Shown here: one piece after another, positions 359-27,988 of the stretch | Layout of the letters: every line of letters starts with the position of its first letter | Position numbering within the stretch: the stretch's first letter is position 1 | DNA from: Eubacteriales bacterium | GTDB taxonomy: Bacteria > Bacillota > Clostridia > Oscillospirales > CAG-272 | DNA: 64,000 nucleotides | NCBI GenBank assembly: GCA_045657485.1 | Contig: JAZOTE010000063.1 | Span: 107,395-171,394, forward strand | Direction: 5' to 3' | Position numbers and translations under genes: made by a program | Notes under the pieces: model-generated | What the model saw: only the letters and a program-made list of their open reading frames with translations | Databases searched by the model: none | Told to the model about the DNA's origin: nothing

Positions 359-430
359 TTAGACACATCATTTACGGAAACATCAAAACGCGTTATAATG
401 TTTTCAGAAAATACGCAAACGATGTGTTCG
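359..430. repeat. H0: degenerate large-loop copy of the TTGGACACATCAT hairpin family
   Basis: Arms tAGACACATCAT (360-371) and ACGATGTGTTCg (419-430). Left flank 333-371 is homologous to the left flank of H6 (22836-22872). Confidence 0.4.
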
Positions 431-532
431 GCGAATGTGATTTTACGATTCAAAAGCTCCATAAGTCTTATTATACAAGACTTTTAAGAAAGTCTCCCCG
501 CTCTGAAGCTCTCCCAAAGCGTCTACTGCAAA

Positions 533-760
533 GAAATGATGGGCTTATACTCCTTACTCGCTACGCCTCTGCGCTTTGTTTGATGCTTGGTGCTACTCAC
601 CTTATTGCGCTACGCCCAACGCTCGAGGAGCAATCTTCGCAGACTCGCTTACAAGCAAGCTTGCAGACTTGCTCTGCGTCGATTATCCGGCGCAGGTAAC
701 AACCCTATGGTCGGTATGACCGTAGCTGTTGCGGTTGATATCGAAGAGGCAAGCAAATAA
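533..760 (+). repeat. Module A: ~150-bp arm, core GGCGCAGGTAAC (689-700), then conserved 23-codon tail ending TAA at 758-760
   Basis: Roughly 228 bp aligns with 16783-17010. The tail translates GAGNNPMVGMTVAVAVDIEEASK*. Confidence 0.75.
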
Positions 761-879
761 TTGAACAAAAAGCGTGATTTTATCAAGTAAATAGCAAGTT
801 TTTATCAAATTTGAAGCAAATTTTGATAAACTCTCTAACAACTTGAAATCATCTTTTTAGGGCTTCCTATAAAAAAGAG

Positions 880-921
880 TTGGACACATCATTTACGTGG
901 ATTACGTGATGATGTGTCTAA
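880..921. repeat. H1 hairpin (terminator-like), family TTGGACACATCAT/ATGATGTGTCCAA
   Basis: A-tract, 13-nt arm 880-892, 16-nt loop, arm 909-921 (one mismatch), then T-rich tail. Loop is nearly identical to the H6 loop. Confidence 0.75.
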
Positions 922-941
922 TTGTTTTTAGGAGAAAAAGT

Positions 942-1034
942 ATGAAAAAACTTAAAATGATGAGTGGCGGTTCGATTACTTCGGAAGATGGATGCAACAA
1001 GTATTTGGATATGCTTGAAGTTGGATATTTTTGA
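942..1034 (+). pseudogene. Tyrosine recombinase 5' stub (30 codons)
   Basis: AGGAG RBS, then MKKLKMMSGGSITSEDGCNKYLD. This matches the starts of the stubs at 2561, 18897 and 22922; homology ends after ...KYLD. Confidence 0.65.
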
Positions 1035-1052
1035 ATAATTCTAAAAATATGG

Positions 1053-1081
1053 TTTACAGCATGAAAAAAATATGTTACAAT
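1053..1081 (+). promoter_or_regulatory. Sigma-A-type promoter for the GH-A gene
   Basis: TTTACA-N17-TACAAT with an upstream TG (extended -10). Confidence 0.5.
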
Positions 1082-1164
1082 CATTAATAGAGATTTGTAA
1101 TGAGAAATATGGGTCAATAAATTACCAAAGATATTCAATAATTAGTACAAAGAGGAGATGCGCA

Positions 1165-2250
1165 ATGAGAGAAAGGTGGACAATCGAACAGGCCAATGAA
1201 TGGTACTTAAAGCAAGGTTGGCTTCGCGGATGCAATTTTATAGGTAGTGACTGCGCTAACCGTCTTGATATGTTTCAAAGTTACAAGTCTGAGGAGAAGC
1301 TTAAAACCGCCGAGCGTGAATTGGCGTTGGCACAGAAAATCGGCTTTAATACGGTTCGTATTTGGGCAAATTTTGACGTATATTACGCCGAGCCAGAATC
1401 ATATATGGAGATATTTGAAAGATACATAGAGCTTTGCTCCAAATACAACCAAAAGGTTATGGTCGTGCTCACTCACGAGGAAGATCTTCCGAGAGGAGAC
1501 GTTTTCGTTCCTAAGCCAATGGGTGAGCAAAATTATGCTCTTGGTTATCATCAGGGAAGATTTCCCCTGACTGAGGAAGAGGCAAGCACTCCGATACGTC
1601 ACTATTATGAATACCCGGACGTCAGGCCGGTTTTCCTCGAGTTTATCAGAAAAACAATAAATAAGTACAAAAACGACGAGAGAATATTGTGTTGGAATCT
1701 TTACAACGAGCCGAGCCACGACCTTTCCGACGATAGAAGCGGTGAGATACTCGATGCGGTGTACAATATAGCGCGCGAGGAGGATCCAATACAACCGTTG
1801 ACCGTTGACCTGTGGCGCGGATTTGTCGATGGACGTCCAAAGACCGCAGAACAACAGAGGGCGCTTGAGATGTCCGACGTTATCAGCTTCCATTCATATG
1901 ATTCCTATGAGCGAGTAGTGGAGGATATTGATATTCTTAAAAGAGAAAATCGACCTTTGCTGCTGACGGAGTGGCTTCACAGAGTGAAGCATAACAACGT
2001 GTTTGATATATATCCGCTCTTGTATATAACCAACGTCGCAAATTATTGTTGGGGATTTGTTGCCGGAAAAACACAGACCACAGAGCCGTGGGAGGATATA
2101 TGGCAGAAGTGGAACGAGGGTGTTGATTGGGGATTCGATTTTACAAAGTGGCAGCACGATCTTTTCCGTCCTAATTTACGCCCTTATGATCCAAAAGAAA
2201 TCAAGTTGATAGAGAAATTCAACAAATTGGCTGCTGATGGAGATAGGTAG
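1165..2250 (+). CDS. Clan GH-A (GH5-like) glycoside hydrolase, cytoplasmic
   Basis: AGAGGAG RBS lies before ATG 1165; the track start at 1072 has none. WNLYNEP (acid/base Glu) and LLLTEW (nucleophile Glu) motifs are present. No signal peptide. Confidence 0.65.
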   Translation: MRERWTIEQANEWYLKQGWLRGCNFIGSDCANRLDMFQSYKSEEKLKTAERELALAQKIGFNTVRIWANFDVYYAEPESYMEIFERYIELCSKYNQKVMVVLTHEEDLPRGDVFVPKPMGEQNYALGYHQGRFPLTEEEASTPIRHYYEYPDVRPVFLEFIRKTINKYKNDERILCWNLYNEPSHDLSDDRSGEILDAVYNIAREEDPIQPLTVDLWRGFVDGRPKTAEQQRALEMSDVISFHSYDSYERVVEDIDILKRENRPLLLTEWLHRVKHNNVFDIYPLLYITNVANYCWGFVAGKTQTTEPWEDIWQKWNEGVDWGFDFTKWQHDLFRPNLRPYDPKEIKLIEKFNKLAADGDR

Positions 2251-2269: not shown

Positions 2270-2368
2270 ATGCGCTTCATGTATTTTATTCTCACGGGCG
2301 CAGGTAACACCCCACAGGCTTTAATGACTGTTGCAGTTGCAGTTGCTGTTAAGGAAGCGAGCAAATAA
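2270..2368 (+). CDS. 32-aa micro-ORF MRFMYFILTGAGNTPQALMTVAVAVAVKEASK (module B; core GGCGCAGGTAAC at 2297-2308)
   Basis: GAAGGA sits 10 nt upstream of the ATG. The C-terminal 23 codons are homologous to the tails at 689, 16939 and 18550. It may be only an att-associated gene end rather than a real gene. Confidence 0.35.
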   Translation: MRFMYFILTGAGNTPQALMTVAVAVAVKEASK

Positions 2369-2487: not shown

Positions 2488-2530
2488 TTGGACACATCAT
2501 TTTAAGGCTTTGTGCCTATGATGTGTCCAA
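2488..2530. repeat. H2 hairpin, perfect 13-bp stem
   Basis: TTGGACACATCAT (2488-2500), 17-nt loop, ATGATGTGTCCAA (2518-2530). A-tract before and T-tract after. Confidence 0.8.
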
Positions 2531-2560: not shown

Positions 2561-2734
2561 ATGAAAAAGCTTAAAATGAAGGTGGCGACAACACTTACCT
2601 TTGAGGAAGGTTGCAACCTTTATCTGAATAATTGCCGTGAACGATATTTGAGAGAAGGCACTGTTAGACATTACAGACAAAGTTATGACCGGTTTTACAA
2701 ATATTACGATAGAGATATCTTAGACGTTAGTTAA
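2561..2734 (+). pseudogene. Tyrosine recombinase 5' stub (57 codons, N-terminal core-binding/SAM-like domain only)
   Basis: AAGGAGG RBS, then MKKLKMKVATTLTFEEGCNLYLNNCRERYLREGTVRHYRQSYDRFYKYY. The stub ends where the convergent gene 2720-3886 ends. Confidence 0.7.
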
Positions 2735-3886
2735 ATTCTCCTTTGTGACAATCTCAACTTCGCCGTCAATCTGCAAAAACGGAATGAGCTCACCGAGTTC
2801 ACTCTTTTGCGATATATCTCGAAGCCTTAACTTTTTTACAGTTACGTTCTCATCTACCGTAAGGAATGGAGTAGGATAGCATTTTTCCACTCTTCGCGCA
2901 TTGTAAATGCTAAGTCCGTCAACATCAAGTCCTTTTTGCACCCATATTATCGGGCGTTTGCCGCTCTCAACGTCGACTGTTCCCGTGCAGGTCTCTGCAA
3001 AGAGATTTTCTATAGTTATGTTTTCTATTTTCCCACGCTCATCGTCACCGCCGTGATACTTTGTTAAACCGATGCAATAGGTGTAGTAAGAGCCGAAAAC
3101 GTTGCGTATTGTGACGTTCTTAACAGGCACACCGTGGGATAGTATTCTGATAGCACTATGTGAGCCCTCTGAATAGATACCGTCAACAACAATATTTTCA
3201 ATAGGTCCGTAAAGTATATCGTCAGCGGTCAAGGCAAGAAGGTCATCGTGGCACGCGCCCTTTAAATTCGTAATGTAGCCGTTTCTGCAATTTCCTTCAA
3301 TGTGGACGCCATCCATATTCCAAAGCTTAGGACTTCCCTCGGTGTAGTCAAATATAATATCCTGAACGGTGAAGTCCTCTATGTAGCCCAAATGAACTCC
3401 GTAAACCACGGGGTTTCTAAAGGTTATATTCTTCAAAATGAAGCGGCGAACTCGACAGAAACGCATACACATTCCCGTATATGCACCTCTTATAAAGCTC
3501 TTACAAGTAGAAAGAGCCGACCAATCCCTATATCCGATGCCTATTTTCTCAAACCAATACTTGCCATCATCGTCGGGGAAATGATAAGGATTTGGCCACT
3601 GGTTATTATGATTCATATCCCAGATTCCGCCATCGATACAGATATTCTCCGAATAGGTCTCAAAATTGTCGTTTTCTATCATCTCGCAATTTGCCTTATC
3701 CGCAAGTTTTATCACGGCAAATCTTGGCAAACGGAGGGTCTGTCCGCCGTGAATCTTCAGCGTCTTACTGATAACGTAAAACTTCTCCGGCGCAGGCAAA
3801 GCAACCTCGCATATAAGCGAATCGAGCATTTCCTGTATAGCGGGATAGTCGTCGTGAATTCCGTCCCCGTATAATCTGTGTTTCAT
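2720..3886 (-). CDS. Pectate-lyase-superfamily / GH28-related right-handed beta-helix protein
   Basis: N-terminal GDGIHDDYPAIQEML opener and repetitive beta-helix rungs. No signal peptide. Confidence 0.55.
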   Translation of the reverse strand: MKHRLYGDGIHDDYPAIQEMLDSLICEVALPAPEKFYVISKTLKIHGGQTLRLPRFAVIKLADKANCEMIENDNFETYSENICIDGGIWDMNHNNQWPNPYHFPDDDGKYWFEKIGIGYRDWSALSTCKSFIRGAYTGMCMRFCRVRRFILKNITFRNPVVYGVHLGYIEDFTVQDIIFDYTEGSPKLWNMDGVHIEGNCRNGYITNLKGACHDDLLALTADDILYGPIENIVVDGIYSEGSHSAIRILSHGVPVKNVTIRNVFGSYYTYCIGLTKYHGGDDERGKIENITIENLFAETCTGTVDVESGKRPIIWVQKGLDVDGLSIYNARRVEKCYPTPFLTVDENVTVKKLRLRDISQKSELGELIPFLQIDGEVEIVTKENLTNV

Positions 3887-3971
3887 AATAACTCCCTAAT
3901 AAAATCTGTTTATCCTAATAATTATAACACAATTCAAATAAAAAATCAATGATTGCAATTCATAATCAATA

Positions 3972-4721
3972 CTATCTCCAGGCGTCAGTAATGGAAAGGG
4001 CAAAATCGTCGGCGGTTCCGAAAACAGGAGCTAACGAGAATATCGCGTATAGTCCTCCCTCAACAAAATCAATATAGAGCCTGTTGTAAATGTTTTCAAC
4101 AGAGTCTATCCTTACACCTGCAACATATCGAAAGGTTTCATCCTTTACGGGAAATGAGAGATAGTATTCTCCGTGCTCCGTAGGTCTTGCCTAGGCATAG
4201 AGCTTGTTTTCTGCTTCCAACAGATCAACACTATTCCAAACCGCAGGCATAGAGGATGCGCCCGAAAGGTGAGGCGAGGTGCGAATAATAATTCCTGCGA
4301 TGTAAAAGCCCTCTCGCTCGGTTATAGTTACGGTTGGGGGTTCAGAGGTTTTATTCTTTTCAAGATTTACAAGAGGGTTCGGTGCTGGCGGCCGGTGAGA
4401 GCCAACGCGTTGCCTGTATTTCTCGGGGGAGTAGGAGTAAACCTTTTTGAATGCCTTTGAAAAACCGCTGTGAGATTCAAAGCCGTATTCAAGGGCGACA
4501 TCTATTATACGCTTTCCTGCGCAAATATCATATGCGGCTCTTGCAAGGCGCGCACGGCGTATATATTCCATAATCGGCATTCCTACATAAAACAAAAAAA
4601 TCTTGCAGAAATGATAGGTGGAAAATCCCGCCCTTTGCGCAAGCATCTTGGAGGAAAGAGGCGACGATAGATTTTTTGTTATAAAATCGACTGTTTGGTT
4701 TATAATCTTCTGATAGTGCAT
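3972..4721 (-). pseudogene. AraC-type HTH + GyrI-like effector-domain regulator interrupted by one in-frame TAG (complement of 4191-4193)
   Basis: The HTH region reads ...EYGFESHSGFSKAFKKVYSYSPEKYR. The same frame continues past the TAG for 72 more codons (ARPTEHGEYYLSFPVKDETFRYVAGVRIDS...ITDAWR*) and completes the GyrI-like domain. Confidence 0.7.
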
Positions 4722-4863
4722 GCCGTCCTCCTTTTTTTATATTATAACATATAATTTTGGGTTTCGCTGTTCCAAATTTGCGAAATTAGAGATGTGCTTG
4801 GGATTTTCCGAGCTTTTAAATATGCGGTTTACTCATTCTGGCACAAAATCATAAACAAAAAAT

Positions 4864-4890
4864 TTGGCACATCACAATTTGTTTTTATAG
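4864..4890. repeat. H3: degenerate half-copy of the hairpin family
   Basis: AAAAAATTTGGCACATCACaatttgttttt resembles the A-tract plus left arm. Confidence 0.3.
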
Positions 4891-5036
4891 CAATCAAAAG
4901 CATAGTGTAAGTTTTTTGGACTTTTTTGTTCTGTTTTCGCTTTTGTCTGCGGAGATTTTTTCGCATATCGAAAAAGATATTAATCATTATAGGCAGAGCT
5001 ATAATATTTTTGCATTCGGAAATTTTCCGGCAAAAA

Positions 5037-5077
5037 ACGGATATATTATAATGGCGTGCCCAAAATGATATATCCGT
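5037..5077. terminator. Bidirectional rho-independent terminator-like hairpin
   Basis: ACGGATATAT...ATATATCCGT 10-bp stem flanked by an A-run and a T-run. Confidence 0.5.
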
Positions 5078-5237
5078 CTTTTATTAAGTATATAGCTTTC
5101 CGTTGTATCGGTTAACTATATTTTTATTTAAAGGTTAAATATATTTTGCTTTGAATTTTAAATAAACCATTTTTCGCTTTGCGAGGCTGATCTATTCGTG
5201 CGAAAAATTTATTAATTTAGTTGAGGGATTATTGATT

Positions 5238-6191
5238 TCAGCGCGAGAATTTGCGAATTGCATCCGCATACGAGGAAACGTCAAAGTCACCGTAGAGTTC
5301 GTGGTAATCGTCACCGAGATAGCAGGCAAAGGACGTGAGCCAATCAAATCCCAGCTCGGCGTATTTTTCCACATCGTTTCGCATCAGCTGCTCATCGAGG
5401 GTGAATTTTTTCGGGGGTCTTACTCTGCCCGAGAAAATGGAGTTATCAAACCAATATTCAAGCACCTTGGGCGATTCGGAATTAAAGGTTTTCATCAAAG
5501 GCTCAAGCATTTTTCTTTCGCGCTCTTTCTTTGCCTCAGCATCGTCGCCCACAGCGGTGTATTTTTCAAAGGGTGCGTACTCAAGAAAGACGCCTTTATC
5601 GGGAAGAATTTTTGCGGGCGGAACAATGCTATCGAAATATGCAAGGTATGCCATTTTTGCATTAGGAACGGATTTTTTGATCTCTTTGAGCATTGCGTTA
5701 ACAACGATCATTTGCTGCTCGGACGGAGAATATTTTCTGCAATTTTCGCAAGAGCAATGTGTGTCTCTGCCATCGTCCATCCAAAAATAGAAATTCGGCT
5801 CAGTGCCATAGAGCATTGAGGCAAGTCTCGCCGCTCTTCTAACGCAGAGGGCAAGGGCATCAGGATTTGTGACGCAGAAGTTCCAATCGTTTACTCTTTC
5901 GCCCTCGGAATTCATTCTGAAGTATTCCGGGTGTTCGCCGATCAGATCTCTTGGAACAAGATAACCTGCGGCGTGAAGCTCGTACTCGATTTTAACCCCG
6001 CGAGACTTAGCGTAGTCTATAAGCTCTCGATAGTCCTTTGTTGCAACAAGCTCCTCCAGCTCAAAAACAAATTTATAAGCTTCCTTTCCGCCTTCGGAAT
6101 GAATACCGAGAATATCAAGCCCGGCATCTGCCATTCGGTCTATCCATCTTTTTGAAAGATCCTGCGGATTTATAATAAGTCCTGAAGTCAT
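5238..6191 (-). CDS. DUF4838/GH20-like TIM-barrel protein
   Basis: FWMDDGRDTHCSCENCRKYS (CxCxxC block) and overall layout. Last gene of a tight 4-gene operon. Confidence 0.45.
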   Translation of the reverse strand: MTSGLIINPQDLSKRWIDRMADAGLDILGIHSEGGKEAYKFVFELEELVATKDYRELIDYAKSRGVKIEYELHAAGYLVPRDLIGEHPEYFRMNSEGERVNDWNFCVTNPDALALCVRRAARLASMLYGTEPNFYFWMDDGRDTHCSCENCRKYSPSEQQMIVVNAMLKEIKKSVPNAKMAYLAYFDSIVPPAKILPDKGVFLEYAPFEKYTAVGDDAEAKKERERKMLEPLMKTFNSESPKVLEYWFDNSIFSGRVRPPKKFTLDEQLMRNDVEKYAELGFDWLTSFACYLGDDYHELYGDFDVSSYADAIRKFSR

Positions 6192-6227
6192 ATCGCTTTC
6201 CTTTTCGGTAGTATTTTAAATAATTGC

Positions 6228-8306
6228 TTACAGTTCAAAAACAAGTTTGCCGCCCGCCATAATATCCACTATGTCAATACGGAAATTCTGAATTTCTTTG
6301 CCGTTGAATCTAACGGAGCTTATATATTTTGCTCCCTTATCTATTACGGAAATTTCCAGCGTTTTACCGGATGAAAGGGATATTTGGGCACTCTTTATCA
6401 TTGGCAATCCAACCAGAAATTCTCCGCGTCCGCTTGCAGGGAACAATCCCAAAACGTTCCACACCAAAAGCGATGACAGACCGCCCGAGTCGTTGTTTCC
6501 GGGCAAGCCGCACCGACCTGTGCCAAACGATCTGGTGACACACTCTCGGATTATATCCTCAAGTCTGTCGTGCCGCCCCGCAAAGATATATGCAAAGGGC
6601 GTCTCCATGTCACATTCGTTGTTGAAGCCCTCAAATCTATGATACGCTGTTTTGGCGATGTCCGGGTATGCATCAAGATGCCTTATCGGTTTTATACTCT
6701 CGCCCGTGAAGCCGAAGAAATCGTCAAGAGCCTTGCAAAGCTTTTCTTTGCCGCCGAGAAGGGCAACCCTCTCTTCCATATTATTTTGGATACGGAATGA
6801 GTAGGTGTATCTATCCCCCTCATAATAAGGTGCGTTATCGGACATAAGTCCGTCGTTACCGTATGCGATCTTCCAATTCTCGGAGAGCTTTTTGAGTCTT
6901 TTTGCAAGCTTTTTGCTGTTTGTAATCTTAGCTAAGGCAAGACAAGTGTCCGTAACGTCGAGAATATGTGTGTATCTTTCAAACGAGCCGGAAAGAACGA
7001 AGAGCTTGAAATCATCGCGGCAAAGCTCCCGCTCTGCACATTCCTCAATAAGTGAAACAGTCGCATCTTCAATACCCATATAGTGGGCGTCAACGAGTGT
7101 CAGAACTCCAAGCATTTTTGCTTGCATTTCTGCAGGAAAAATATCCGAAAGACAGAAGCTGCAGGGTATACTTCCAAGTACTCTGCTTATATTACCGATT
7201 GTGCGGACAAGCTTACCGCCCATTTCGGGGTATGCAAAGTAAATCAAGGGATATGCTGTCTTGTATTGATCCCAGAGGGTTGCAAGATCCACGACCGTGT
7301 CTTGCGCAACTCCGAGAACACATTCACCCGTCATATCAACCGGTTTCACGAGCGAGTGATAAAGATTTGAATAAAACTTTCCGAGAAGCTCATCCGACTC
7401 AGCTTCAATTTTGAATTTTGAGAGATGCTCGTTCCAGATTTCATATGCTTTTGATCTTGCGCTGTCAAAATCAAGCTCGGCAGAAAGAAGCTCTTCTTTT
7501 GCTCTCTTTGCTGATACTGTGGAATAGGCAACGGCAATTTCGCATACGTTTCCGTCGGCGTTGAATACCGCCTGCATCGGAAGATTAGCACTTTCGGCTT
7601 TGAGTGTTTTTTTGTCGTTTTTTTTGCTATCTTGGCATAAATATGCGACCCGTGTCGAGTTTTTTGCACGAGCTACAAAGTAAAGCCTTATTCCGGAGAA
7701 GATTCCCGAAAATGAAATTTCGCCTTCCTCTTCAAGCAAAAGGGTACAATCCTTGATTGTTCCCCGATACTTTTTATCGAAAGCCGTACTTAAACCGTCG
7801 TTTGAAAAATCTATGGCAACCTTTCCGCCTGTATTGGGAAAGCTGTATCTATGAAGTGCGACGCCTCCGCTTACTGTCATTTCGCACTTTATGCCGCCAA
7901 GCTCCGCAGAGTAGTAACCGGGGACCGCAAACTCATTTTTGATGGGGTGATACACCCTGCTGTTTTTTTCGTCACCGAAAAAGGGTGTTGTGAGAGCGTA
8001 ATTATAGAAAAATTGAATGTCTCCGGTTCCGCTTTGGTGAAGATGGGTAAATCCCACAGCAAGCATTTCATCGGAAAGCTTGCGTATTCCGCCGCAGGAA
8101 TTGGGATAATGAGTGCCATATCCTGTGGGGTAAGCCCCGCTGTACGCGCCAACGGACATTTTTCCAAACGGAAGTGTTGCGTGGGGAATCGTATTGCCAC
8201 ATTGCGCTTTTATGTAAAACCATTTTGACGCAAGTCCTTCGTCAAAAAATCTGTCGGTTTCACCGTTTCCCATAAAAACGTCTACGTGTTTGCAAATGTC
8301 AATCAT
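6228..8306 (-). CDS. GH92-like alpha-mannosidase
   Basis: GFTHLHQSGTG and GLPGNNDSGGLSS correspond to conserved GH92 blocks. No signal peptide. Confidence 0.65.
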   Translation of the reverse strand: MIDICKHVDVFMGNGETDRFFDEGLASKWFYIKAQCGNTIPHATLPFGKMSVGAYSGAYPTGYGTHYPNSCGGIRKLSDEMLAVGFTHLHQSGTGDIQFFYNYALTTPFFGDEKNSRVYHPIKNEFAVPGYYSAELGGIKCEMTVSGGVALHRYSFPNTGGKVAIDFSNDGLSTAFDKKYRGTIKDCTLLLEEEGEISFSGIFSGIRLYFVARAKNSTRVAYLCQDSKKNDKKTLKAESANLPMQAVFNADGNVCEIAVAYSTVSAKRAKEELLSAELDFDSARSKAYEIWNEHLSKFKIEAESDELLGKFYSNLYHSLVKPVDMTGECVLGVAQDTVVDLATLWDQYKTAYPLIYFAYPEMGGKLVRTIGNISRVLGSIPCSFCLSDIFPAEMQAKMLGVLTLVDAHYMGIEDATVSLIEECAERELCRDDFKLFVLSGSFERYTHILDVTDTCLALAKITNSKKLAKRLKKLSENWKIAYGNDGLMSDNAPYYEGDRYTYSFRIQNNMEERVALLGGKEKLCKALDDFFGFTGESIKPIRHLDAYPDIAKTAYHRFEGFNNECDMETPFAYIFAGRHDRLEDIIRECVTRSFGTGRCGLPGNNDSGGLSSLLVWNVLGLFPASGRGEFLVGLPMIKSAQISLSSGKTLEISVIDKGAKYISSVRFNGKEIQNFRIDIVDIMAGGKLVFEL

Positions 8307-8326
8307 TAAGCTTTACCTTTCCGTTT

Positions 8327-15695: not shown

Positions 15696-15762
15696 ACGAT
15701 ATGTAACGGGGACTCTCACCGCTTTTGCGGTTCTTCGTTTAATAAATAAGGCTGGCGGTTGT

Positions 15763-17165: not shown

Positions 17166-17498
17166 GTGGAGCCTTCCTCCTTGAATGACAGTTTTGAGCT
17201 CAACATAACTATACCAAATTCTGCCAGCGAATACGAGAGTTGAACATATACTGTTTCAAATTAAAACTATCACAAACAGGACGAAAATCTCACTCAATTC
17301 ATCCCCTCTTTTGGATTTTTATTTGATGATTCCCATTGCCAAAAGGGCGTAAAGATGGTATCATACACGCGCGGACAAAAATAAATTCGTCCACATTGTG
17401 TCCACAAAGGCACAAACAAAAAAGCGTTAAAAACTAACCAATAAGAGATTTGAAGAGGACTTTTTCTTCGTAATTCACCGCGCGTCCAACGCGCGTTC

Positions 17499-17510
17499 GG
17501 CGTAGGTAAC
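17499..17510 (+). repeat. Decayed fifth copy of the core (GGCGTAGGTAAC)
   Basis: The left flank ttcGGCG.AGGTAAC matches module C. The right flank is only weakly similar to the tail. Confidence 0.35.
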
Positions 17511-18438: not shown

Positions 18439-18549
18439 AGGCTTATGAAGAAGCGGTAAAGGAGGAGTATCGTTTCTTCTCCTTCGGCGACGCGATGCTG
18501 ATTGTATAAATCGCCCAATACTGCGTTGAAGCATCGACTTGTCGCCCTC

Positions 18550-18621
18550 GGCATAGGTAACAACCCGCAGGTTTTAATGACTGATGCAGTAGCTGTTGCT
18601 ATCGAAGAGGCAAGCAAGTAA
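18550..18621 (+). repeat. Module D: core GGCATAGGTAAC + tail GIGNNPQVLMTDAVAVAIEEASK*
   Basis: 24 codons in frame, with the stop at 18619-18621. Confidence 0.7.
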
Positions 18622-18823: not shown

Positions 18824-18865
18824 TTGGACACATCATAAACGTATTTTCGCTTATGATGTGTCCAA
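18824..18865. repeat. H5 hairpin, perfect 13-bp stem
   Basis: TTGGACACATCAT, 16-nt loop, ATGATGTGTCCAA. A-tract and T-tract flanks. Confidence 0.8.
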
Positions 18866-18896: not shown

Positions 18897-19244
18897 GTGA
18901 AAAAGATCAAAATGTCAAGAGGTGTAACGCTCACTTTTGAGGAAGGCTGCAACAAGTATTTAGAGAATTGTCGGCAACGAAATTTAAGAGAAGGCACTAT
19001 CGAGCATTATCGACAAAGCTACGTGCAGTTCTATAAGTTCTTCGATCCTAAAATGCCTATTGAGGACATTGATGATCAGCTCTATAAGAACTATGTTCTG
19101 CATTTGAAATCGGCTTTGGATAATGATGTCAGTATCAATTCTTATTTGAGAGATTTGATTAGGCGTATTTCGCAGCTCTCACCCCAAGGGGTTCTCCGAC
19201 GGCTCGGTTTTATAGTCATTATGCGTCTATCAGAGCCTACGTAA
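18897..19244 (+). pseudogene. Tyrosine recombinase 5' stub (~95 homologous codons; no catalytic domain)
   Basis: AGGGAGG RBS and GTG start. Reads VKKIKMSRGVTLTFEEGCNKYLENCRQRNLREGTIEHYRQSYVQFYKFF...SINSYLRDLI, then an unrelated tail. The convergent GH89-like gene ends at 19276. Confidence 0.7.
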
Positions 19245-19275: not shown

Positions 19276-21534
19276 TTAGCCTTCTTTTTTCAACTCGCCG
19301 ATAAACTTCTTTGCCTGCTCTGCCACCTCGGCAAGCGGCATGCTCTCACGCTTCATTTCGGCAAGCGGCGTTTCAAAGTAAACGGCACGGATCTTCGCAA
19401 AATCTGCCGTCAGCCCCTTGGTATCCAGCGGAATACCTGCCTTTGCTGCCACAATAGCCGCGCTCAGCCAAAGCCTCGTTTCAGGCAGATAGAGATATAC
19501 TGCATTTTCATAAATATGTGCTCGGTTGTAGTCACATTCCGCATTGTTTTTGAGCGTTTTTTCAAAATTCGGGTTGGTATCTGTTTCCGTTTTCAGCCTC
19601 TCGAGCGATGCGAGCAGAGAATAATCCTCATGTCCGCCCAGAAGCAGGCAAAAGGCCTCGAGGAGCGAAATGGAAATCTGTGATGCCTTTTCAACGCCGC
19701 CCGCATCCCCGTTTGCAAAGCAGAGCTCGGCGTGGAGAATTGCCGCATTGATGAATCGGCTTATCACAGTTCTTGCAATATCGTAGGCGTCTCTTCTCGT
19801 TTTTTCATCGTCAAGCGAGATTTGCGTGAGCGTCGAAAGGATCTGCAAAGCAGCATCCTTCGTTTCCATAAAATATGCGAGGATTGTCTCGTTCTTTTTT
19901 ATTTCCGCGGAATTGAAGAGGGCGTTTTCTTGAATATGCTCAAAAAGATCGTCGCAGGGAAGAGTTCCATCGGTCGGTCCTGTCCAAGACATCAGCCTTG
20001 CAATAGGAAGTATTTTCTTCCATATCGAAAGCATTGCGCCGGCATTTTCCTTTTCGTATCTTTCCTCGCAGAAGCCCTCAAGAAGTGCATCTATAGAGGG
20101 TGTGTCCTCCTCCCAGGCATTTTTTGAAAGATAATAAAGATTGAGCGGGTTGCCGTGCGAGAATTCAGGCCAGAAAACCATACCGCGGCACATAGCATCC
20201 TTCTTGGCAAGCGAAAGTCTTTCATTCATCAGCGCAAAGTTACCGCGTATATCGTGGTGCTTTTCAAGTCCGCCGAAAATGCCGAAGATCCATGGAAATT
20301 TGCCTAAAAGGTTCCATTTCGTAAAGTCGTTGCCGCTTTCTGCCTCGGAGGTGTAATCAAAGAAAATGGTTTGATTAGGGTCCAGCTCTGCAAGCAAAGC
20401 CTTTGCCTCCTCGGGTGTATAACGCATCCAAATATCCCAACTCGCCAGCAAAAGAGGCGCATTTGGATATTTTTTGCGAAGATTTTCCGCAATTCTACGG
20501 TAGGTGAAAAGCTTCATTCGCAGATTTTCTGCCCTATCCCTTGAGTACATTCGCTCGGCAAGTCCAATTGTGTGGAAGATCTCACCCTTGCCGTATTCCT
20601 TTACGTGCGTGTCTGTCAATTGCTCGTAATATTCCATATTTTTCTTCTCGCGAATATCAAAAACAAGCCCCGTCTGCTCGCTGTATCCCTTCGTGGTCTG
20701 CGAAAGTAGCGTGGGCTTTTTCTTTTCAAGAAAGGCGATCGGCGTGCGCGAATACCAGTGTGTCATTGTGCCTGCATCGTCAGGGTGCATCAGATCACGC
20801 TCGAATGCGTATTGCAGGATTTTCTTGCGAAGCTCTCCGCGATATTCAAGCGACCAGAAAAGGTTACGGTCATCATATCCATTAGCCGATTCGGGAAGAG
20901 GGAGATCGCGGTCGGGATACGGAACGATATCGGGAAATGCCTTTTGAAAAAGATCGTCCGCTCCGATACGAAGCATAAAGAGATTAAGTCGGCTTTTCAA
21001 GAGCCAATTGATCTCGCGTTTCCAGTCCTCAAACCCCCATTGCTCGGCCTGAAAGCGGTGGAGGCTGCGGTGTGCAAAATAGCGGATGCCGCGATATTCA
21101 AAGCGCGGCGCTTCACAAATAGAAATATCGGCAAATGGCAAATCCACACAAGGAATACGGTCTCCGTCCCAAAACCAGCGGCAACCGCAGAATTTTTCAA
21201 AATAGCGGTAAACCGCATAAATGGTTGAGCGCGGACGTCCGCCCGCCAAAATCAGATATTCCGTTTCGTCGATTTTTTCGCTTCTCACCGTGTAGCCGTC
21301 CGTACCGTAGCGGAAACCAAGCGGTGAAATCTTGCCATCAAGTAAAAATGCGGCAAGTACGTCGTTTACGCTATCGTTTCCGATAATAACAGCTTGCTTC
21401 GGCTTTTCTTCAAGAGCGAGAAACTCTGCGTCCGTTATCGTTTCAGCACCGCACTTTGCAAGGGCAACAAATTCGTCTGCCGCAATTTTGTATGCCGTGT
21501 GTGAATTTTGGGGGTAAACAACAAAGATATTCAT
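19276..21534 (-). CDS. GH89-like (alpha-N-acetylglucosaminidase/NAGLU-like) protein
   Basis: Start at MNIFVVY with AAAGGAAG RBS. W..W.REINW...LNLFML and FPWIFGIFGG blocks resemble the NAGLU TIM barrel; the similarity is distant. Confidence 0.5.
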   Translation of the reverse strand: MNIFVVYPQNSHTAYKIAADEFVALAKCGAETITDAEFLALEEKPKQAVIIGNDSVNDVLAAFLLDGKISPLGFRYGTDGYTVRSEKIDETEYLILAGGRPRSTIYAVYRYFEKFCGCRWFWDGDRIPCVDLPFADISICEAPRFEYRGIRYFAHRSLHRFQAEQWGFEDWKREINWLLKSRLNLFMLRIGADDLFQKAFPDIVPYPDRDLPLPESANGYDDRNLFWSLEYRGELRKKILQYAFERDLMHPDDAGTMTHWYSRTPIAFLEKKKPTLLSQTTKGYSEQTGLVFDIREKKNMEYYEQLTDTHVKEYGKGEIFHTIGLAERMYSRDRAENLRMKLFTYRRIAENLRKKYPNAPLLLASWDIWMRYTPEEAKALLAELDPNQTIFFDYTSEAESGNDFTKWNLLGKFPWIFGIFGGLEKHHDIRGNFALMNERLSLAKKDAMCRGMVFWPEFSHGNPLNLYYLSKNAWEEDTPSIDALLEGFCEERYEKENAGAMLSIWKKILPIARLMSWTGPTDGTLPCDDLFEHIQENALFNSAEIKKNETILAYFMETKDAALQILSTLTQISLDDEKTRRDAYDIARTVISRFINAAILHAELCFANGDAGGVEKASQISISLLEAFCLLLGGHEDYSLLASLERLKTETDTNPNFEKTLKNNAECDYNRAHIYENAVYLYLPETRLWLSAAIVAAKAGIPLDTKGLTADFAKIRAVYFETPLAEMKRESMPLAEVAEQAKKFIGELKKEG

Positions 21535-21793
21535 AATCTTTCTTCCTTTCGAAATCAAAATCAAAGGTCCAAACAATATCACTGCAAGGATGTCCTCTCA
21601 AAAACTAAAAAATAGGTGAGAAAACGCATCTTTTCATCCAAACAGGAATTTCAGTATAAGTGTATCACAAAAAAATCCAATGAGAAACGCATTTTTTCGC
21701 CAAAAAGGTGGATTTTTTCGTCACAGTATGATATAATAACTTCAAATGTCGTATTAATGCAAGTGGGGCATCTTCGCTTCGTTGGAGGAAAAT

Positions 21794-22537
21794 ATGATAT
21801 ACAATTTCGACACACTTTCATTTGAGATACTTTCAATATTTCCATCTCGTCACAAAGACGGATATTTTTTCGTCAAACCTCGGCCGTATGCCGCGCTCGC
21901 TATCCGTCTTGGCGGATGCGGAGAATTTAATATCGCGGGAAACCGTATGCCGTTTTCTTCAGGGGATATCGTCTTTCTGCCATCAAACATGGCATACGAC
22001 GTTAAATATTCTGATAACGAAACCGTTGTCGTGCATCTTATTAATTGCAATTATAGCGAGCCTGAAATCTTTCATCCCGAAAATCCTGCGTTTTTCCGCA
22101 CTGCTTTTCTTCAGCTATTGGAAGGGTGGAACAAAAATCATTCAGTCAATTATGCAAAATCAAAAATCTATGAAATCCTTGAAAAAATGGCAAGCGAAAA
22201 AAGGCAAGATCACAATGGAGGGCCGTTCGATGCTTGCCTTGCCTATATGGAAGCGCATTTTTTTGATCCGGATCTTGAAATCAGCAAAATTTGCGCGGTT
22301 GGCTTCATGAGCCAATCCAGTCTGCTAAGAGGCTTTCACCAGCGCTTTGGCATGTCGCCAAAGGCCTATCTATCAAAGCTTCGCATCCATCGCGCAATGG
22401 AGCTTTTGCTCTCCCAAAATCAATCCGTCAAGGAGATCGCTTTCGCCTGCGGTTTTTCGGACGAAAAGTTTTTCTCCCGCGTGTTCAAGAAAAAATACGG
22501 CTTTTCACCCTCTCAACTGAAAAAAGAATGTAGGTAA
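21794..22537 (+). CDS. AraC family transcriptional regulator
   Basis: Cupin N-terminus. C-terminal HTH reads ...IAFACGFSDEKFFSRVFKKKYGFSPSQLKK. Confidence 0.8.
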   Translation: MIYNFDTLSFEILSIFPSRHKDGYFFVKPRPYAALAIRLGGCGEFNIAGNRMPFSSGDIVFLPSNMAYDVKYSDNETVVVHLINCNYSEPEIFHPENPAFFRTAFLQLLEGWNKNHSVNYAKSKIYEILEKMASEKRQDHNGGPFDACLAYMEAHFFDPDLEISKICAVGFMSQSSLLRGFHQRFGMSPKAYLSKLRIHRAMELLLSQNQSVKEIAFACGFSDEKFFSRVFKKKYGFSPSQLKKECR

Positions 22538-22859: not shown

Positions 22860-22901
22860 TTGACCACATCATTTACGCGGATTACGTGATGATGTGTCCA
22901 A
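22860..22901. repeat. H6 hairpin (one arm mismatch)
   Basis: TTGACCACATCAT, 16-nt loop, ATGATGTGTCCAA. Same loop subtype as H1. Confidence 0.75.
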
Positions 22902-22921: not shown

Positions 22922-23035
22922 ATGAAAAAACTACGGATGGTAAAGTCAAATTCAATCACTTTGTAAGAAGGCTGCAACAAGTATTTGGATAACTGCCGAG
23001 CAGGGAATTTGCGCGAAGAAACTATCAATCACTGC
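22922..23035 (+). pseudogene. Tyrosine recombinase 5' stub with an in-frame TAA at codon 15
   Basis: MKKLRMVKSNSITL*EGCNKYLDNCRAGNLREETINH. Homology to the other stubs ends at about 23035. Confidence 0.65.
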
Positions 23036-23074
23036 ATACTTGATAAAAGTTGTTACAAAGTTGCTGGAAGATGC

Positions 23075-23103
23075 TTGACTTTTGATACGAAACAATCTAT
23101 AAT
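23075..23103 (+). promoter_or_regulatory. Near-consensus sigma-A promoter
   Basis: TTGACT-N17-TATAAT, immediately after the recombinase stub. Confidence 0.6.
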
Positions 23104-23277
23104 GTGTACTGAAATACATCTGAATGATGTGTTCATCTCTTAAAATATTTATGGAAAGGCTTCTTCGTAAGACAACTTTACGTAGAGCTATGGAGTCTGC
23201 ATTCGCCCAGACGAGTGCGGGAAAATTTATAAATACCGATTTTAAACGAAAGCATCAGTTGTGGGAGGTAAGCTTCA

Positions 23278-24978: not shown

Positions 24979-25202
24979 TAGACCGACTATGCTCTACCGC
25001 GAGCTTTGACGCGTGCCTAGAGATAATCAACAGCTCAGGTTCCTTCATACAAAAACTTGTTCAAAAAAACAGCTTTCATTTTTGTTTCTTATATGTTAAA
25101 ATAGGATTTGGACAGACCGTTTTGCAGTGAAAACAACAAAATGAGTAAAAAAGGTAACAAACCGAACTTGTCCGTATTGTACAAAAAAAACGGAGGATTA
25201 CC

Positions 25203-26444
25203 ATGACGTTTAATATTCTCGATTACGGCGCGACCGTGGGCGAAAAGCTGTGTACCCGTGAGATCCAAAAAACCATAGACGATTGCTTCTTAAACGGTGG
25301 CGGAGAGGTTATAGTGCCTAAGGGAAGATATCTTGTCGGCGGTTTGCGCTTGCGATCCAACGTTACGCTTCATCTTCTTGAGGACGCCGTTTTGCTGGGA
25401 AGCGTTGATCCGGATGATTATTGCACTTATCTTGACGATATGGTTGAACCGATTTCCGAATCTGAGAGGGAATCCTTTTCTCCCACTATTAATGTTGGAT
25501 ATAAGCCCAGCAGCTGCGTATATCCTCATTCCAGATGGAATAACGCAATAATCCGAGCAATAAACGCTAAAAATATAGCGATAATCGGCGAGCGCGGCTC
25601 CGAGATCGACGGTCAAAATTGCTTTGACGAGGTGGGTGAGGAGAATTACAGAGGTCCCCACGCCATCAATATGTGGTATTGCGAGAACATCGTTCTTCGC
25701 GGCTATACGGTTCGCGACAGCGGAAACTGGGCTCACGCTATCCAAAACAGTAAGAATATTTCTATTAGCGAGGTTACCGTTCTTGCCGGTCACGACGGCT
25801 TTGACGTGCGTACCTGCGATGATATCTTGATCGAAAATTGCAGATTTATTACCGGTGACGATTGTATCGCTGGATTTGATAATATAGGCGTTACCGTTCG
25901 TAATTGCTATTTTGAGAGCGCATGCAGTATTTTACGTTTTGGCGGTACCGACGTGCTCGTCGAAAATTGCGAGGGAATCGCCCCCGCAACCTACGGACAC
26001 CGATGCAATCTTTCCGATGAAGAAAAGCGTGCACGGCAAGATACGACCGAAGCCTGCCGCCACAACACCCTCAACGTATTTTTGTATTATTGTGATAATC
26101 GCGCAAAGATTAGAAAAACTCCGGGAAATATCTTGATCAGAAACTGCCGATTTAAAAATCCCGATGCCATAATGAGCATCCCATTCGGTCATATATGGTG
26201 CTGTAACCGTTCACTTGCGGATATAACGTTTGAAAACTGCGTGTTTGAGGGACTTCGACATCCTTCGGAGATTTCAGCTCCCGATAACGAGCCTCTCACC
26301 TTCCGTATGAAAAACTGCGCTGTATCCACCGGAGAGGGCTGTGAGAATATTCCTTTTATCACGGGCAAGAACGTCAAAAGTGTAGAGCTTACCGAAACGT
26401 CTATTAAAGGTTTTATCGAGCCTCGCATTCTTTGTGAACCGTAA
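25203..26444 (+). CDS. GH28 family glycosidase (polygalacturonase-like)
   Basis: GHDGFDV and GDDCIAGF motifs on a beta-helix layout. No signal peptide. Confidence 0.65.
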   Translation: MTFNILDYGATVGEKLCTREIQKTIDDCFLNGGGEVIVPKGRYLVGGLRLRSNVTLHLLEDAVLLGSVDPDDYCTYLDDMVEPISESERESFSPTINVGYKPSSCVYPHSRWNNAIIRAINAKNIAIIGERGSEIDGQNCFDEVGEENYRGPHAINMWYCENIVLRGYTVRDSGNWAHAIQNSKNISISEVTVLAGHDGFDVRTCDDILIENCRFITGDDCIAGFDNIGVTVRNCYFESACSILRFGGTDVLVENCEGIAPATYGHRCNLSDEEKRARQDTTEACRHNTLNVFLYYCDNRAKIRKTPGNILIRNCRFKNPDAIMSIPFGHIWCCNRSLADITFENCVFEGLRHPSEISAPDNEPLTFRMKNCAVSTGEGCENIPFITGKNVKSVELTETSIKGFIEPRILCEP

Positions 26445-26499
26445 GCCTTCAGTATTCAAGAGCATAAACCCTTCGTATATGCTCTAATGCTCAGAAAAA

Positions 26500-26535
26500 G
26501 ACACGTCGTTTCGTTCTACCTATTACGATGTGTTC
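26500..26535. repeat. H7: degenerate hairpin-family copy
   Basis: AAAAAGACACGTCGT...ACGATGTGTTCgatttgttttt. Confidence 0.3.
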
Positions 26536-26655
26536 GATTTGTTTTTCGATAAAAGTGGAAAAGATATGTTTTATTAAAAGGTTTTCACGCTTTTGTGGAG
26601 AAATGAAAAATATAATGTAAAATGTGTGATTCTTAATAAAATTTCACGCGAAAAG

Positions 26656-26684
26656 TTGACAACCGAGATAAAAACTGCTATAAT
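26656..26684 (+). promoter_or_regulatory. Consensus sigma-A promoter
   Basis: TTGACA-N17-TATAAT. Confidence 0.65.
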
Positions 26685-26747
26685 CTTGAAATACGAACGG
26701 TGCTGCATAGACGCACAAAACCTAAACTGCTTTTTGGAGAATATGAT

Positions 26748-27767
26748 ATGAGAAAGTATTTGTTACCCAACAAAAATTCGTATAAAGCAAACCTGCACAT
26801 GCACTCAACGTTTTCTGACGGCAAAATGACGCCGGAGGAAATAAAGGAGCATTATCTTGCAAACGGTTATTCCATAGTAGCGTTTACTGACCACGAGGCT
26901 ATTACGCCGCACAACGAGCTGCGCGACGAGAAATTTCTTCCCATAACGAGCTATGAGCTCGCAATAAACGGTAGCCCGGACGGAAAGCTGTACAGATATA
27001 GCAAAACGTACCACCTGAACTTTTTTGCCAAAGATCCGGAATGCACGTTTTCTTCGGCTTTTTCATATAGCCGTATGCGTTGGGCGCAGGGAAGAGCGAG
27101 CGTCCCCGCGGATAAGGTGGGCTATGAATGTCCCGGCAAAGAATATAGCGTAGAGTGCATAAACCGTCTTATAGCGCAAGCTCGCGAAGAGGGCTTTCTC
27201 GTTTCGTATAATCACCCCGTATGGTCGCAACAGGCATATCCCGATTACATAGGCTTGAAGGGACTGTTTGGAATCGAGATTCACAATTCGGAGTGTAAAT
27301 TACTTGGATACCACGATACCGTGCAGCCTTGGTGCGATCTTTTGAAACAAGGCGAAAGACTCTTTCCTCTTGCAACCGACGATTCCCACTTAATAGAGAG
27401 CTCACTTGGCGGTTGGATATGTATTGCGGCAGACAGGCTTGAGTACAACACCATCTTTGAAGCCTTGGAGAATGGCGACTTTTATGCCTCGACAGGTCCT
27501 GAGATCAAGGAGCTTTACGTAGAGGACGGTATCCTAGTAGTACACACCTCGCCTGCATCTAAGGTAGAGGTTAACACTGATCGCCGTATTGCTTGCTCCT
27601 CCGAGTATTGCGATCCGCCAAAGGACACGTTCTGTTTTGATTTGGCGAAGATTTTGCCGGATAATAACGATCCGCAAAAATCCCTCTATCTCCGTGTAAC
27701 CGTGCGCGATAATAAAGGTATGTGTGCGTGGACTAGGGCGTATTTCCTTGATGAAATCGATCTCTGA
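26748..27767 (+). CDS. PHP-domain metal-dependent phosphoesterase
   Basis: GGAGA RBS. NLHMHSTFSDG and AFTDHE motifs. Confidence 0.65.
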   Translation: MRKYLLPNKNSYKANLHMHSTFSDGKMTPEEIKEHYLANGYSIVAFTDHEAITPHNELRDEKFLPITSYELAINGSPDGKLYRYSKTYHLNFFAKDPECTFSSAFSYSRMRWAQGRASVPADKVGYECPGKEYSVECINRLIAQAREEGFLVSYNHPVWSQQAYPDYIGLKGLFGIEIHNSECKLLGYHDTVQPWCDLLKQGERLFPLATDDSHLIESSLGGWICIAADRLEYNTIFEALENGDFYASTGPEIKELYVEDGILVVHTSPASKVEVNTDRRIACSSEYCDPPKDTFCFDLAKILPDNNDPQKSLYLRVTVRDNKGMCAWTRAYFLDEIDL

Positions 27768-27946
27768 CGGTTAAGCTTACCGTTCCAAATAAATAAGCAA
27801 AAGCAAAAAGGCGGAATTTGCGATCCAAACTGCAAATTCCGTCTTTTAAATATCGAATTGCCGTGATTTTTGCAATAGACAGAGCTTTCATAAGAAAGCA
27901 TGTCGAATATGATTTTCCTAAAATCTACATATCGATACAATAAAAG

Positions 27947-27988
27947 TTGGACACATTGTTTTAAGTTTATCCCGATTGACGTGTCCAA
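27947..27988. repeat. H8 hairpin (shorter stem, no recombinase stub)
   Basis: TTGGACACatt...GACGTGTCCAA with A-tract and T-tract flanks. Confidence 0.6.

Follow-up and report, generated by a model that had tools for sequence, protein, structure and literature searches.

A 64-kb window of an Eubacteriales genome opens with a probable decayed array of integrative islands at the 3' end of GGGtGRT

ICESt1 and ICESt3 are integrative and conjugative elements that insert at the 3' end of fda. In Streptococcus thermophilus these elements accrete in tandem and decay to cis-mobilizable elements (CIMEs) (PMC5704250, a review citing Pavlovic 2004 and Bellanger 2011), and the ssrA islands of Dehalococcoides target the transfer-messenger RNA gene and carry reductive dehalogenase cargo (PMC3146451). 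In this report we compare with these systems a 64,000-nucleotide (nt) stretch of contig JAZOTE010000063.1 from an Eubacteriales bacterium, the whole of which is referred to as the window. The first 28 kb of the window very probably represent a decayed head-to-tail array of small islands of a single family that were inserted at the 3' end of a gene for a GGGtGRT-family protein (PF14057). Among the papers searched, we found none linking GGGtGRT to integration.

A first-pass annotation of the window had described an array of carbohydrate-active enzyme (CAZyme) genes delimited by hairpins, and had proposed that related integrative elements accreted serially and then lost every recombinase. The proposal of accretion followed by recombinase loss is well supported by intact relatives at one target, direct repeats of the target 3' end, tandem arrangements and scattered truncations of the recombinase gene. 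In the mechanism that we propose, an Xer-like integrase of 300-315 amino acids (aa) would insert a circular island into the last ~30 codons of GGGtGRT. Intact islands carry, in order, a replacement for the last 24-31 codons, a 50-200-nt spacer, a hairpin, the integrase gene and cargo of 1-10 kb (between 4 and 10 kb with a single exception), and end in an outward sigma-70-like promoter, a further copy of the ATGATGTGTN motif and the left half of the attachment (att) site. Integration would keep GGGtGRT intact and leave a second copy of the gene end on the far side of the island. New islands would go into the same site, so that islands stack; the integrase genes would then be deleted from random points in their 3' part, leaving the punctuation 'gene-end fragment - hairpin - integrase stub' among the retained cargo genes. 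We infer the same order of events for the window.

Intact islands at the 3' end of GGGtGRT

The first-pass annotation had suggested a search for full-length homologues of the truncated recombinase. Our scan of species-representative genomes with an alignment of the integrase yielded 170 relatives, and the best 79 loci hold 80 intact, full-length integrase genes. The encoded proteins are 300-315 aa in length and all come from metagenome-assembled genomes (MAGs), mostly of gut or rumen, labeled Oscillospiraceae, Acutalibacteraceae, Christensenellaceae, Ca. Fimenecus or 'Clostridia'. Catalytic residues are kept in these relatives; protein P0221 has GVRQRS, HRYRHTF and LGHSNLAITQNY, and PF00589 was matched on locus L005. 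All 80 integrase genes are tied to GGGtGRT: 69 lie directly 3' of a complete or contig-cut GGGtGRT gene, nine follow a gene-end fragment, and two have the gene ~0.2-1 kb upstream. The integrase start lies a median of 156 nt past the stop codon of GGGtGRT, and a hairpin of the family seen in the window was found between the two in nearly all full-length loci. In L005, for example, an intact GGGtGRT gene (Pfam E = 5e-159) is followed by 50 nt, the same hairpin and a full integrase gene of 315 codons.

A second copy of the gene end lies 1-10 kb 3' of the integrase gene in at least 22 islands with an intact integrase, and these islands end 2-11 kb downstream of GGGtGRT. The repeat at the left and right ends (attL/attR) runs from CGTnGArATGATGGG (codons VEMMG) through the stop codon, a distance of ~100 nt. 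Two intact islands stand in tandem in L006, with a third att copy, and further tandem arrays were found in L016, L029, L045 and L055. An intact GGGtGRT gene stands at one end of the array in L001, L088 and others, and integrase stubs recur in similar arrays 3' of GGGtGRT in other MAGs. Direct repeats of the gene end, with the integrase gene beside the target, are the standard signature of a site-specific island that enters a gene at its 3' end and supplies a substitute for the part displaced.

One island is shared by L011 and L012, which belong to different hosts. Their integrase regions are 97% identical, and their attR sequences show one difference over ~150 nt up to ATGATGGG and are host-specific beyond it. 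We infer that crossover takes place within or next to ATGATGGG-NCTNATCGGNGCA-GGTAAC (~25 nt, codons EMMGLIGAGN). The evidence does not converge on one position and points to two nearby junctions, ..AT/CGG and GGTAAC/ (slashes mark junctions). In the window, one remnant of the left att half terminates at ..GCAT/ (23202) and one core copy halts after GGTAAC (17510). Locus L094 (2070-2366) shows an in-frame fusion, at codon 78 of an integrase stub, with the tail of GGGtGRT (..LDNDV/NNPMVGMTVAVAVAIEDASK and a stop; TAACAACCCC), and the deletion spans from within the integrase gene to the GGTAAC core of the next att copy.

A phage origin of the family was considered and rejected: the best deposited phage match is 31% identical, and the one close copy in IMG/VR is the L006 array. 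An IMG/VR contig classed as viral (L097, 8898-10043) carries a 50%-identical integrase gene directly after a fragment of GGGtGRT codons 301-316, and phage-borne relatives may use the GGGtGRT target too.

The hairpin is bound to this arrangement. Counting all sequences, 126 hairpins were collected: 86 stand ahead of an integrase start, 95 come after a gene end and 15 have neither neighbor, leaving 111 that are tied to one or the other. Alignment of 97 hairpins showed that CACATCAT is invariant and that six of the 12 outer stem pairs have compensatory changes; one pair is GC in 48, AU in 44 and GU in five, and the inner stem is variable yet paired by eye. Normally, the more alike two integrases are, the more alike are the spacers 5' of their hairpins. 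At the right end of L012, the gene-end fragment leads into an ordinary terminator rich in GC, and the hairpin is missing; the hairpin therefore arrives as part of the island and does not serve as the primary att site. The hairpin loop was accordingly rejected as the primary crossover, since the attL/attR repeats are the gene end and L012 lacks the hairpin at its right end. The first-pass annotation had taken the hairpins for the boundaries of the units; instead, the att repeat is the gene end and the hairpin is internal, between the replacement gene end and the integrase gene.

The arm motif of the hairpin, ATGATG(T/G)G(T/A)C, is also present at the target, in codons EMMGL (ATGATGGGTCT), and the arms of some islands (L010-L012) match these codons exactly. 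Since both arms carry this target-codon motif, they are probably binding sites for the integrase or a partner, either an arm-type site or an operator. As a strong intrinsic terminator, the hairpin would also stop transcripts of GGGtGRT, a highly expressed gene, and so insulate the integrase gene from read-through. A lone copy of the arm motif lies 85-115 nt 5' of the right-end att in 28 of 35 cases, and a near-consensus sigma-70 promoter precedes it at 19 of the 35 right ends. Outward sigma-70-like promoters with the lone motif 25-45 nt farther on were seen at attR of L006, L008, L011, L012, L019, L045, L069 and others.

Hairpins, gene-end fragments and integrase stubs in the window

The features of the array that belong to the island ends are given below.

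330..376, + strand: half hairpin (E-type left flank, left arm at 359-371 and 6 nt of loop, then unrelated sequence), 85% identical to 22831-22877
533..548, + strand: X-left A, remnant of GGGtGRT codons EMMGLI (GAAATGATGGGCTTAT)
549..687, + strand: ~140-nt inserted module, copy A, between X-left and core; 81% identical to 16799-16937 and 87% to L091
688..760, + strand: att core CGGCGCAGGTAAC and GGGtGRT gene end (final 24 codons and stop), copy A
880..921, + strand: hairpin A, from the arm search; -28.6 kcal/mol
942..1033, + strand: integrase stub A, 30 codons, residues 1-22 recognizable
2296..2368, + strand: att core and GGGtGRT gene-end fragment, copy B, GNTPQALMT variant
2488..2530, + strand: hairpin B, exact pattern; -29.7 kcal/mol
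2561..2734, + strand: integrase stub B, 57 codons, residues 1-53
4864-4882: weak lone arm within the unit B gene block
16778..16798, + strand: X-left C (CGTCGAAATGATGGGACTCAT); its 21 nt also open the attR gene-end block of L029, without a mismatch
16799..16937, + strand: ~140-nt inserted module, copy C, from repeat comparison
16938..17010, + strand: att core and GGGtGRT gene-end fragment, copy C
17099..17125, + strand: half hairpin C (left arm and 14 nt of D-type loop), from arm match and repeat family
17293..17510, + strand: right-end (P) arm of a putative lost island, with promoter-like site 17336-17364, GC hairpin and core copy CGGCGTAGGTAAC at 17498-17510; 83% identical to L029 9311-9525
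18549..18621, + strand: att core (CGGCATAGGTAAC) and GGGtGRT gene-end fragment, copy D
18824..18865, + strand: hairpin D, from exact pattern, folding and terminator scan
18897..19244, + strand: integrase stub D, residues 1-88 and an unrelated 27-codon tail, from Pfam and tblastn
22860..22901, + strand: hairpin E, no gene-end fragment upstream, from arm search and folding
22922..23040, + strand: integrase stub E, stop at codon 15, tblastn residues 1-37
23075..23202, + strand: island right-end arm, with TTGACT-17-TATAAT at 23075-23103, motif ATGATGTGTTCAT at 23124-23136 and X-left remnant ACGTAGAGCTATGGAGTCTGCAT at 23180-23202
26500..26534, + strand: degenerate, diverged full hairpin, from folding and hairpin search
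27947..27988, + strand: degenerate hairpin F, from arm search and folding
28043..28090, + strand: fifth, weak integrase remnant 3' of hairpin F, ~residues 63-85 (KSIFNNDVSTSFY, cf. LKSALDNDVSINSY), seen by eye and under the tblastn threshold

Nine hairpin-family elements lie within 330-27988 (four near-perfect, two degenerate and three half copies), in agreement with the count of the first-pass annotation. The exact pattern TTGGACACATCAT-N12-22-ATGATGTGTCCAA matched twice (2488-2530 and 18824-18865), compared to no match in 100 shuffles. With up to two mismatches per arm, there were 15 arm matches in the window against 1.3 expected. They make up full hairpins at 880-921, 2488-2530, 18824-18865, 22860-22901 and 27947-27988, whereas at 359-371 and 17099-17111 a left arm stands alone. 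The relaxed search found only single arms at chance level past 28 kb (49173 and 59287), and the sole hairpin-like site there is a poor pseudo-hairpin (36180-36213) without A/T flanks. Folded as RNA, the good hairpins reach -25 to -30 kcal/mol, with z between -7 and -8, and the degenerate ones -12 to -16 kcal/mol. As a stable stem-loop with a T-run, the hairpin is a predicted intrinsic (Rho-independent) terminator, and the order A-run, long stem and T-run gives it the look of a bidirectional one. Hairpin D ranks first in a scan of the window for terminator-like sites.

A second repeat family lies 90-200 nt 5' of hairpins A-D (687-761, 2295-2369, 16937-17011 and 18548-18622) and reads ..GAGNNPMVGMTVAVAVDIEEASK-stop, which is the C-terminus of the GGGtGRT-family protein. 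The 13-nt core CGGNNNAGGTAAC is present in five copies on the same strand (at 688, 2296, 16938, 17498 and 18549), compared to 1.9 expected, and four of the five run on into the last 24 GGGtGRT codons. Homology to the gene end begins abruptly at CGG(N)GCAGGTAAC in all copies in the window. Judged by sequence, the att repeat is the GGGtGRT gene end, with CGGNGCAGGTAAC as its predicted core. Homology of the lost-island arm to L029 ends after the core at 17498-17510, while its L029 counterpart runs into a gene-end fragment, and the architecture of the arm at 23075-23202 recurs at attR in other loci. The right-end promoters at 17336-17364 and 23075-23136, ahead of the SASA gene and the 566-aa open reading frame (ORF) that are listed with the cargo, may now drive those genes.

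Copies of the ~140-nt module (549-687, 16799-16937 and L091 66-213) are 81-87% alike and sit exactly between the EMMGLI remnant and the core. Within the module lies a hairpin that shows a compensatory change (GCAAGCTTGCAGACTTGC / GCGAGCTTGCAGACTCGC), and some short motifs of the module also occur in a hairpin module of ~50 nt that belongs to the right-end arms of L006, L008, L011 and L012. Copy C had no Rfam match. Searches at gathering thresholds over the array, and at E values up to 1 over 16.4-19.3 kb, detected no known RNA family.

Four hairpins are followed by a ribosome-binding site (RBS) and an ORF that corresponds to the N-terminus of an integrase, with starts at 942, 2561, 18897 (GTG) and 22922. 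The longest, stub D, had been read by the first-pass annotation as a core-binding domain, and a profile check against integrase families, which it had also proposed, gave a match to Phage_int_SAM_5 (PF13102; E = 2.5e-7, 31.4 bits against a cut-off of 22.3). We recovered only residues 1-22, 1-53, 1-88/100 and 1-37 when two full-length relatives were used as tblastn queries, and, as the annotation had stated, no fragment of a catalytic domain was found in the entire 64 kb. The window has no intact integrase of this family. As the copies in the window lack the catalytic domain that their relatives have, they are pseudogene stubs.

Cargo, decay and alternative explanations

The integrase genes have decayed at scattered positions. 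We aligned 220 stub-like proteins to a full-length integrase; 158 have unrelated tails, and these break at residues 63-252 with no truncation hotspot among the 158, as expected for random decay. Some stubs are fused to fragments of insertion sequences or resolvases. Compared with intact relatives, stub D shows saturated dS, a dN of ~0.08 and a dN/dS of ~0.05, suggesting that it worked as a functional gene until recently. Two protein searches, which listed only proteins of up to 258 aa, had given the impression that stubs vastly outnumber intact genes; this was rejected. The excess is probably due to unannotated MAGs and to contigs that break in repeated integrase genes, since the genome scan yielded at least 80 intact copies.

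The cargo genes of the array are as follows.

1165..2250, + strand: GH5 gene, surviving cargo of unit A
2720..16398, strand unspecified: unit B block with GH28, AraC, DUF4838, GH92, GH20, GH28, AraC, GH127-like, YgjV and VanZ genes
17626..18438, + strand: SASA-family esterase gene, between the core copies at 17498 and 18549
19276..22537: NAGLU-family glycosidase gene (- strand) and AraC regulator gene (+ strand), 96% identical in L090 and L091
23278..26444, + strand: 566-aa ORF, then a GH28 gene

The richness in CAZyme genes noted by the first-pass annotation is real: the array holds a GH5, three GH28, a GH92, a GH20, a GH127-like, a DUF4838, a NAGLU and a SASA esterase gene. Four AraC regulators lie within 1-28 kb and a fifth just past it. 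The remaining array genes are YgjV, VanZ, PHP and the 566-aa ORF, which is of unrecognized family. Both strands of the array are occupied by genes, among which AraC regulators and promoter-like sites are interspersed, and a GH35 gene at 44 kb shows that CAZyme genes also occur outside the array. In exact look-ups, the GH5, SASA and stub D proteins had no database record, and a metagenome scan with NAGLU returned relatives at 36-37% only.

The 22 islands flanked by att repeats and holding intact integrases have a different cargo. Their 140 ORFs include 16 resolvases and eight WYL/WCX proteins, together with Macro, restriction-modification, abortive infection (Abi), SIR2 and AriA genes, and conjugation, relaxase or replication genes were not detected in this cargo scan. 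CAZymes, which the first-pass annotation had seen in nearly all units of the window's array, are thus not the usual cargo of the family. In further intact islands, the cargo includes genes for large surface proteins, for another tyrosine recombinase or for restriction-modification of type I. The resolvases are small serine recombinases (Resolvase domain), often beside a WYL/WCX regulator. A second tyrosine recombinase, 23-25% identical, lies ~0.6 kb 3' of the integrase gene in L017 (2593-3441), L028 (~11439-12278) and L068 (~11531-12238). Eight loci (L020, L021, L022, L037, L049, L062, L063 and L067) have a 0.75-2 kb insert between the hairpin and the integrase gene; in L020, the one locus inspected, the insert appears to contain a minus-strand ORF. 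Among arrays with stubs, L001 carries GH2, DUF6259, GH129 and AraC genes and L086 carries GH20, GH39, GH92 and AraC genes; stub arrays of other MAGs also hold a cluster resembling those for ribosomally synthesized and post-translationally modified peptides (RiPPs) and a dehydrogenase. Hence the CAZyme theme belongs to some old arrays in glycan-degrading hosts and not to the element family.

Through proteins P0002 and P0377 we reached three sister contigs (L090, L091 and L102). L090 and L091 are 96% identical to the window from hairpin D rightwards and differ upstream, where they have another gene-end block and an F-type spacer; the left arm of their hairpin is F-like. In L102 (1-900), which is 98% identical over ~810 nt, the 58 nt that lie 3' of SASA in the window lie directly 5' of it, joined as CTTGTC/TTAC. 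The SASA unit (17498-18561, with cores CGGCGTAGGTAAC and CGGCATAGGTAAC) is thus circularly permuted relative to L102, as would result from a re-inserted circle or from tandem duplication and deletion.

Several observations weigh against a simple history of island accretion and random deletion at GGGtGRT. No intact GGGtGRT gene was found in the 64 kb by tblastn, and the array begins 330 nt from the window edge beside an unrelated minus-strand gene, so that the link to the target rests on the gene-end fragments and on other genomes. None of the 140 ORFs of the 22 intact islands matched a CAZyme family; with defense genes in place of CAZymes in those islands, not every array CAZyme need have arrived as island cargo. 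Hairpin E has no gene-end fragment, and the hairpin of sister strain L091 is chimeric. Sequence breaks fall within hairpin loops at 376/377 and 17125/17126 and also in L004, where the right arm alone stands ahead of a near-intact integrase gene, beside an unrelated gene and outside the GGGtGRT locus. The two junctions ..AT/CGG and GGTAAC/ also recur. These odd junctions could be due to palindrome-stimulated deletion, tandem duplication, gene conversion or the action of an integrase on secondary sites. Palindromes are hotspots of deletion and template switching, and this property would account for the breakpoints in the hairpin loops.

A more novel alternative, which we consider unlikely, takes up the last of these options. 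The hairpin, as two inverted target half-sites, and the core would serve as secondary sites at which modules devoid of integrase, such as single glycan-enzyme genes, would be cut out and re-inserted in trans by the intact integrases of co-resident islands. Such activity would account for the L091 chimeric hairpin, the half hairpins centered on the loop, the permuted SASA unit and the core junctions, and, if true, would amount to an integron-like shuffling of accessory metabolism in gut Clostridia.

A stronger version, raised by the first-pass annotation as a cassette platform with a new kind of boundary site, would make the hairpin, the 13-nt core or both the recombination sites proper, with integrase-less modules moved, as in integrons, by an intact integrase that is encoded elsewhere and acts in trans. 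We regard it as improbable. The target-codon motif in the hairpin arms, the different unit upstream of the chimeric hairpin of L091, half hairpins that break in the loop, the lone right arm of L004 off the GGGtGRT locus and the SASA gene between two cores with permuted flanks would all be expected. Against them stand the at least 22 islands in which the repeat is the gene end and not the hairpin, the right end of L012 without a hairpin, the normal co-inheritance of spacer, hairpin and integrase, units in both orientations with their own promoters and regulators, random points of stub truncation and the lack of an intact family integrase in the window. As the main mechanism, the platform is thus not supported; a few junctions within hairpin loops leave room for a minor form of it.

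The first-pass annotation had also spoken of domestication. The loss of the recombinases stands, but the idea that the stubs were retained for use is very improbable. The ~90-residue core-binding domain would then be expressed as a DNA-binding protein, for example at the hairpin or att, that blocks integration or regulates neighboring genes. An RBS and start codon are kept in four stubs, hundreds of stub clusters are present in metagenomes, and stub D differs from the same truncated allele in the 96%-identical L090 by seven synonymous and eight non-synonymous changes (neutral expectation ~2.8 and 12.2; binomial p = 0.013). Yet stub E stops at codon 15, stubs A and B have 30 and 57 codons, and truncation points are scattered. 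Stub D has diverged more (5.7%) than the neighboring NAGLU gene (2.5%), with five non-synonymous and no synonymous changes in its tail; gene conversion from live integrases would give the same pattern, and the abundance of stubs probably reflects assembly and annotation bias.

A generic role for the hairpin, as a terminator or a repeat similar to repetitive extragenic palindromic (REP) elements and untied to the recombinase, is contradicted despite its bidirectional-terminator look, as the remaining 36 kb of the window contain no copy, 111 of 126 copies in ~100 loci of other genomes adjoin an integrase start or gene end, and its stem sequence is invariant far past the needs of a terminator.

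A few further repeats were seen in the window. A fragment of a YgjV-like gene start (16437-16510) in the array is 77% identical to the start of an intact ORF 19 kb away (35435-35971), the YgjV label of the pair being taken from the array gene at 14919-15446. A minus-strand tRNA-Arg(CCG) gene (45994-46284) has a 49-nt, 92% partial copy 212 nt off, which resembles the att duplication of a different element. Two repeats ~2.1 kb apart (47972-48265 and 50048-50346) are 91-93% alike, each with a terminator-like hairpin, and on the minus strand, 48179-48066 weakly matches the C-terminus of an integrase (E = 0.13).

The island array at GGGtGRT adds an unannotated integrase family and a chromosomal target, the 3' end of an abundant and uncharacterized gene family, to uncultured gut and rumen Clostridia. 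The region 3' of GGGtGRT is a hotspot of gene gain, where fresh islands bring phage defense and old arrays keep glycan enzymes with their regulators. The order 'gene-end core - hairpin - integrase start' is a simple marker for variable regions in MAGs, and the repeated island structure explains why short-read assemblies break there.

Comparison with known systems

Dispersed repeats such as REP elements and miniature inverted-repeat transposable elements offer no parallel, the present repeat being limited to the array in this window. Integrons are closer, with a tyrosine recombinase of the Xer-like group and palindromes between units of one to a few genes. However, the hairpin here lies 5' of each integrase gene and not after each cassette, the flanking repeats are the gene end, and the units have their own promoters and regulators in both orientations; the promoterless cassettes of one orientation, each ending in attC, that define an integron were not found in the array. 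Scores with integron-integrase models are far below the cut-offs (TIGR02249, 47.5 bits against 265; PRK15417, 26 against 435).

The integrase is built like XerC, XerD and XerA, which also serve the integrative mobile elements exploiting Xer (IMEX) and pdif modules: a SAM-like core-binding domain and a catalytic domain, ~300 aa in all, and arm binding has no domain of its own. Among solved structures, the nearest are XerA, a XerC-like protein and XerD. The scores with the Xer equivalog models remain far below the NCBIfam cut-offs (XerA 133/220, XerC 116/335 and XerD 111/330), and, in contrast to Xer and the elements that exploit it, the integrase gene is borne by the island and the site is not dif-like.

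The Dehalococcoides ssrA islands are similar in that many small islands share one conserved target with the integration module beside the site, cargo with a metabolic theme drives strain diversity, and many islands lack the integration module. They differ in the target, which is protein-coding here, and in the cargo, which here is mixed, with defense genes in intact islands and glycan enzymes in this array.

A close likeness is to ICESt1/ICESt3 and the CIMEs, and the behavior of the islands fits the scheme of accretion and decay that the review gives for integrative and conjugative elements, IMEs and CIMEs (PMC5704250). In both systems, a tyrosine integrase gene lies beside att, new elements enter the att of a resident, and older elements lose the integration genes and keep att and cargo. 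The present islands differ by their size (6-11 kb), by having no detected conjugation, relaxase or replication genes, by GGGtGRT as the target, and by the hairpin with the target motif between gene end and integrase gene. A CIME-type array would be expected to end in an intact target gene, which is not present in the 64-kb window. Repeats of the target 3' end in the same orientation are present, as is the integrase gene beside att, with intact members of the family at the same target. Site-specific accretion followed by decay is already known for other elements, and GGGtGRT is a target for which we found no earlier report.

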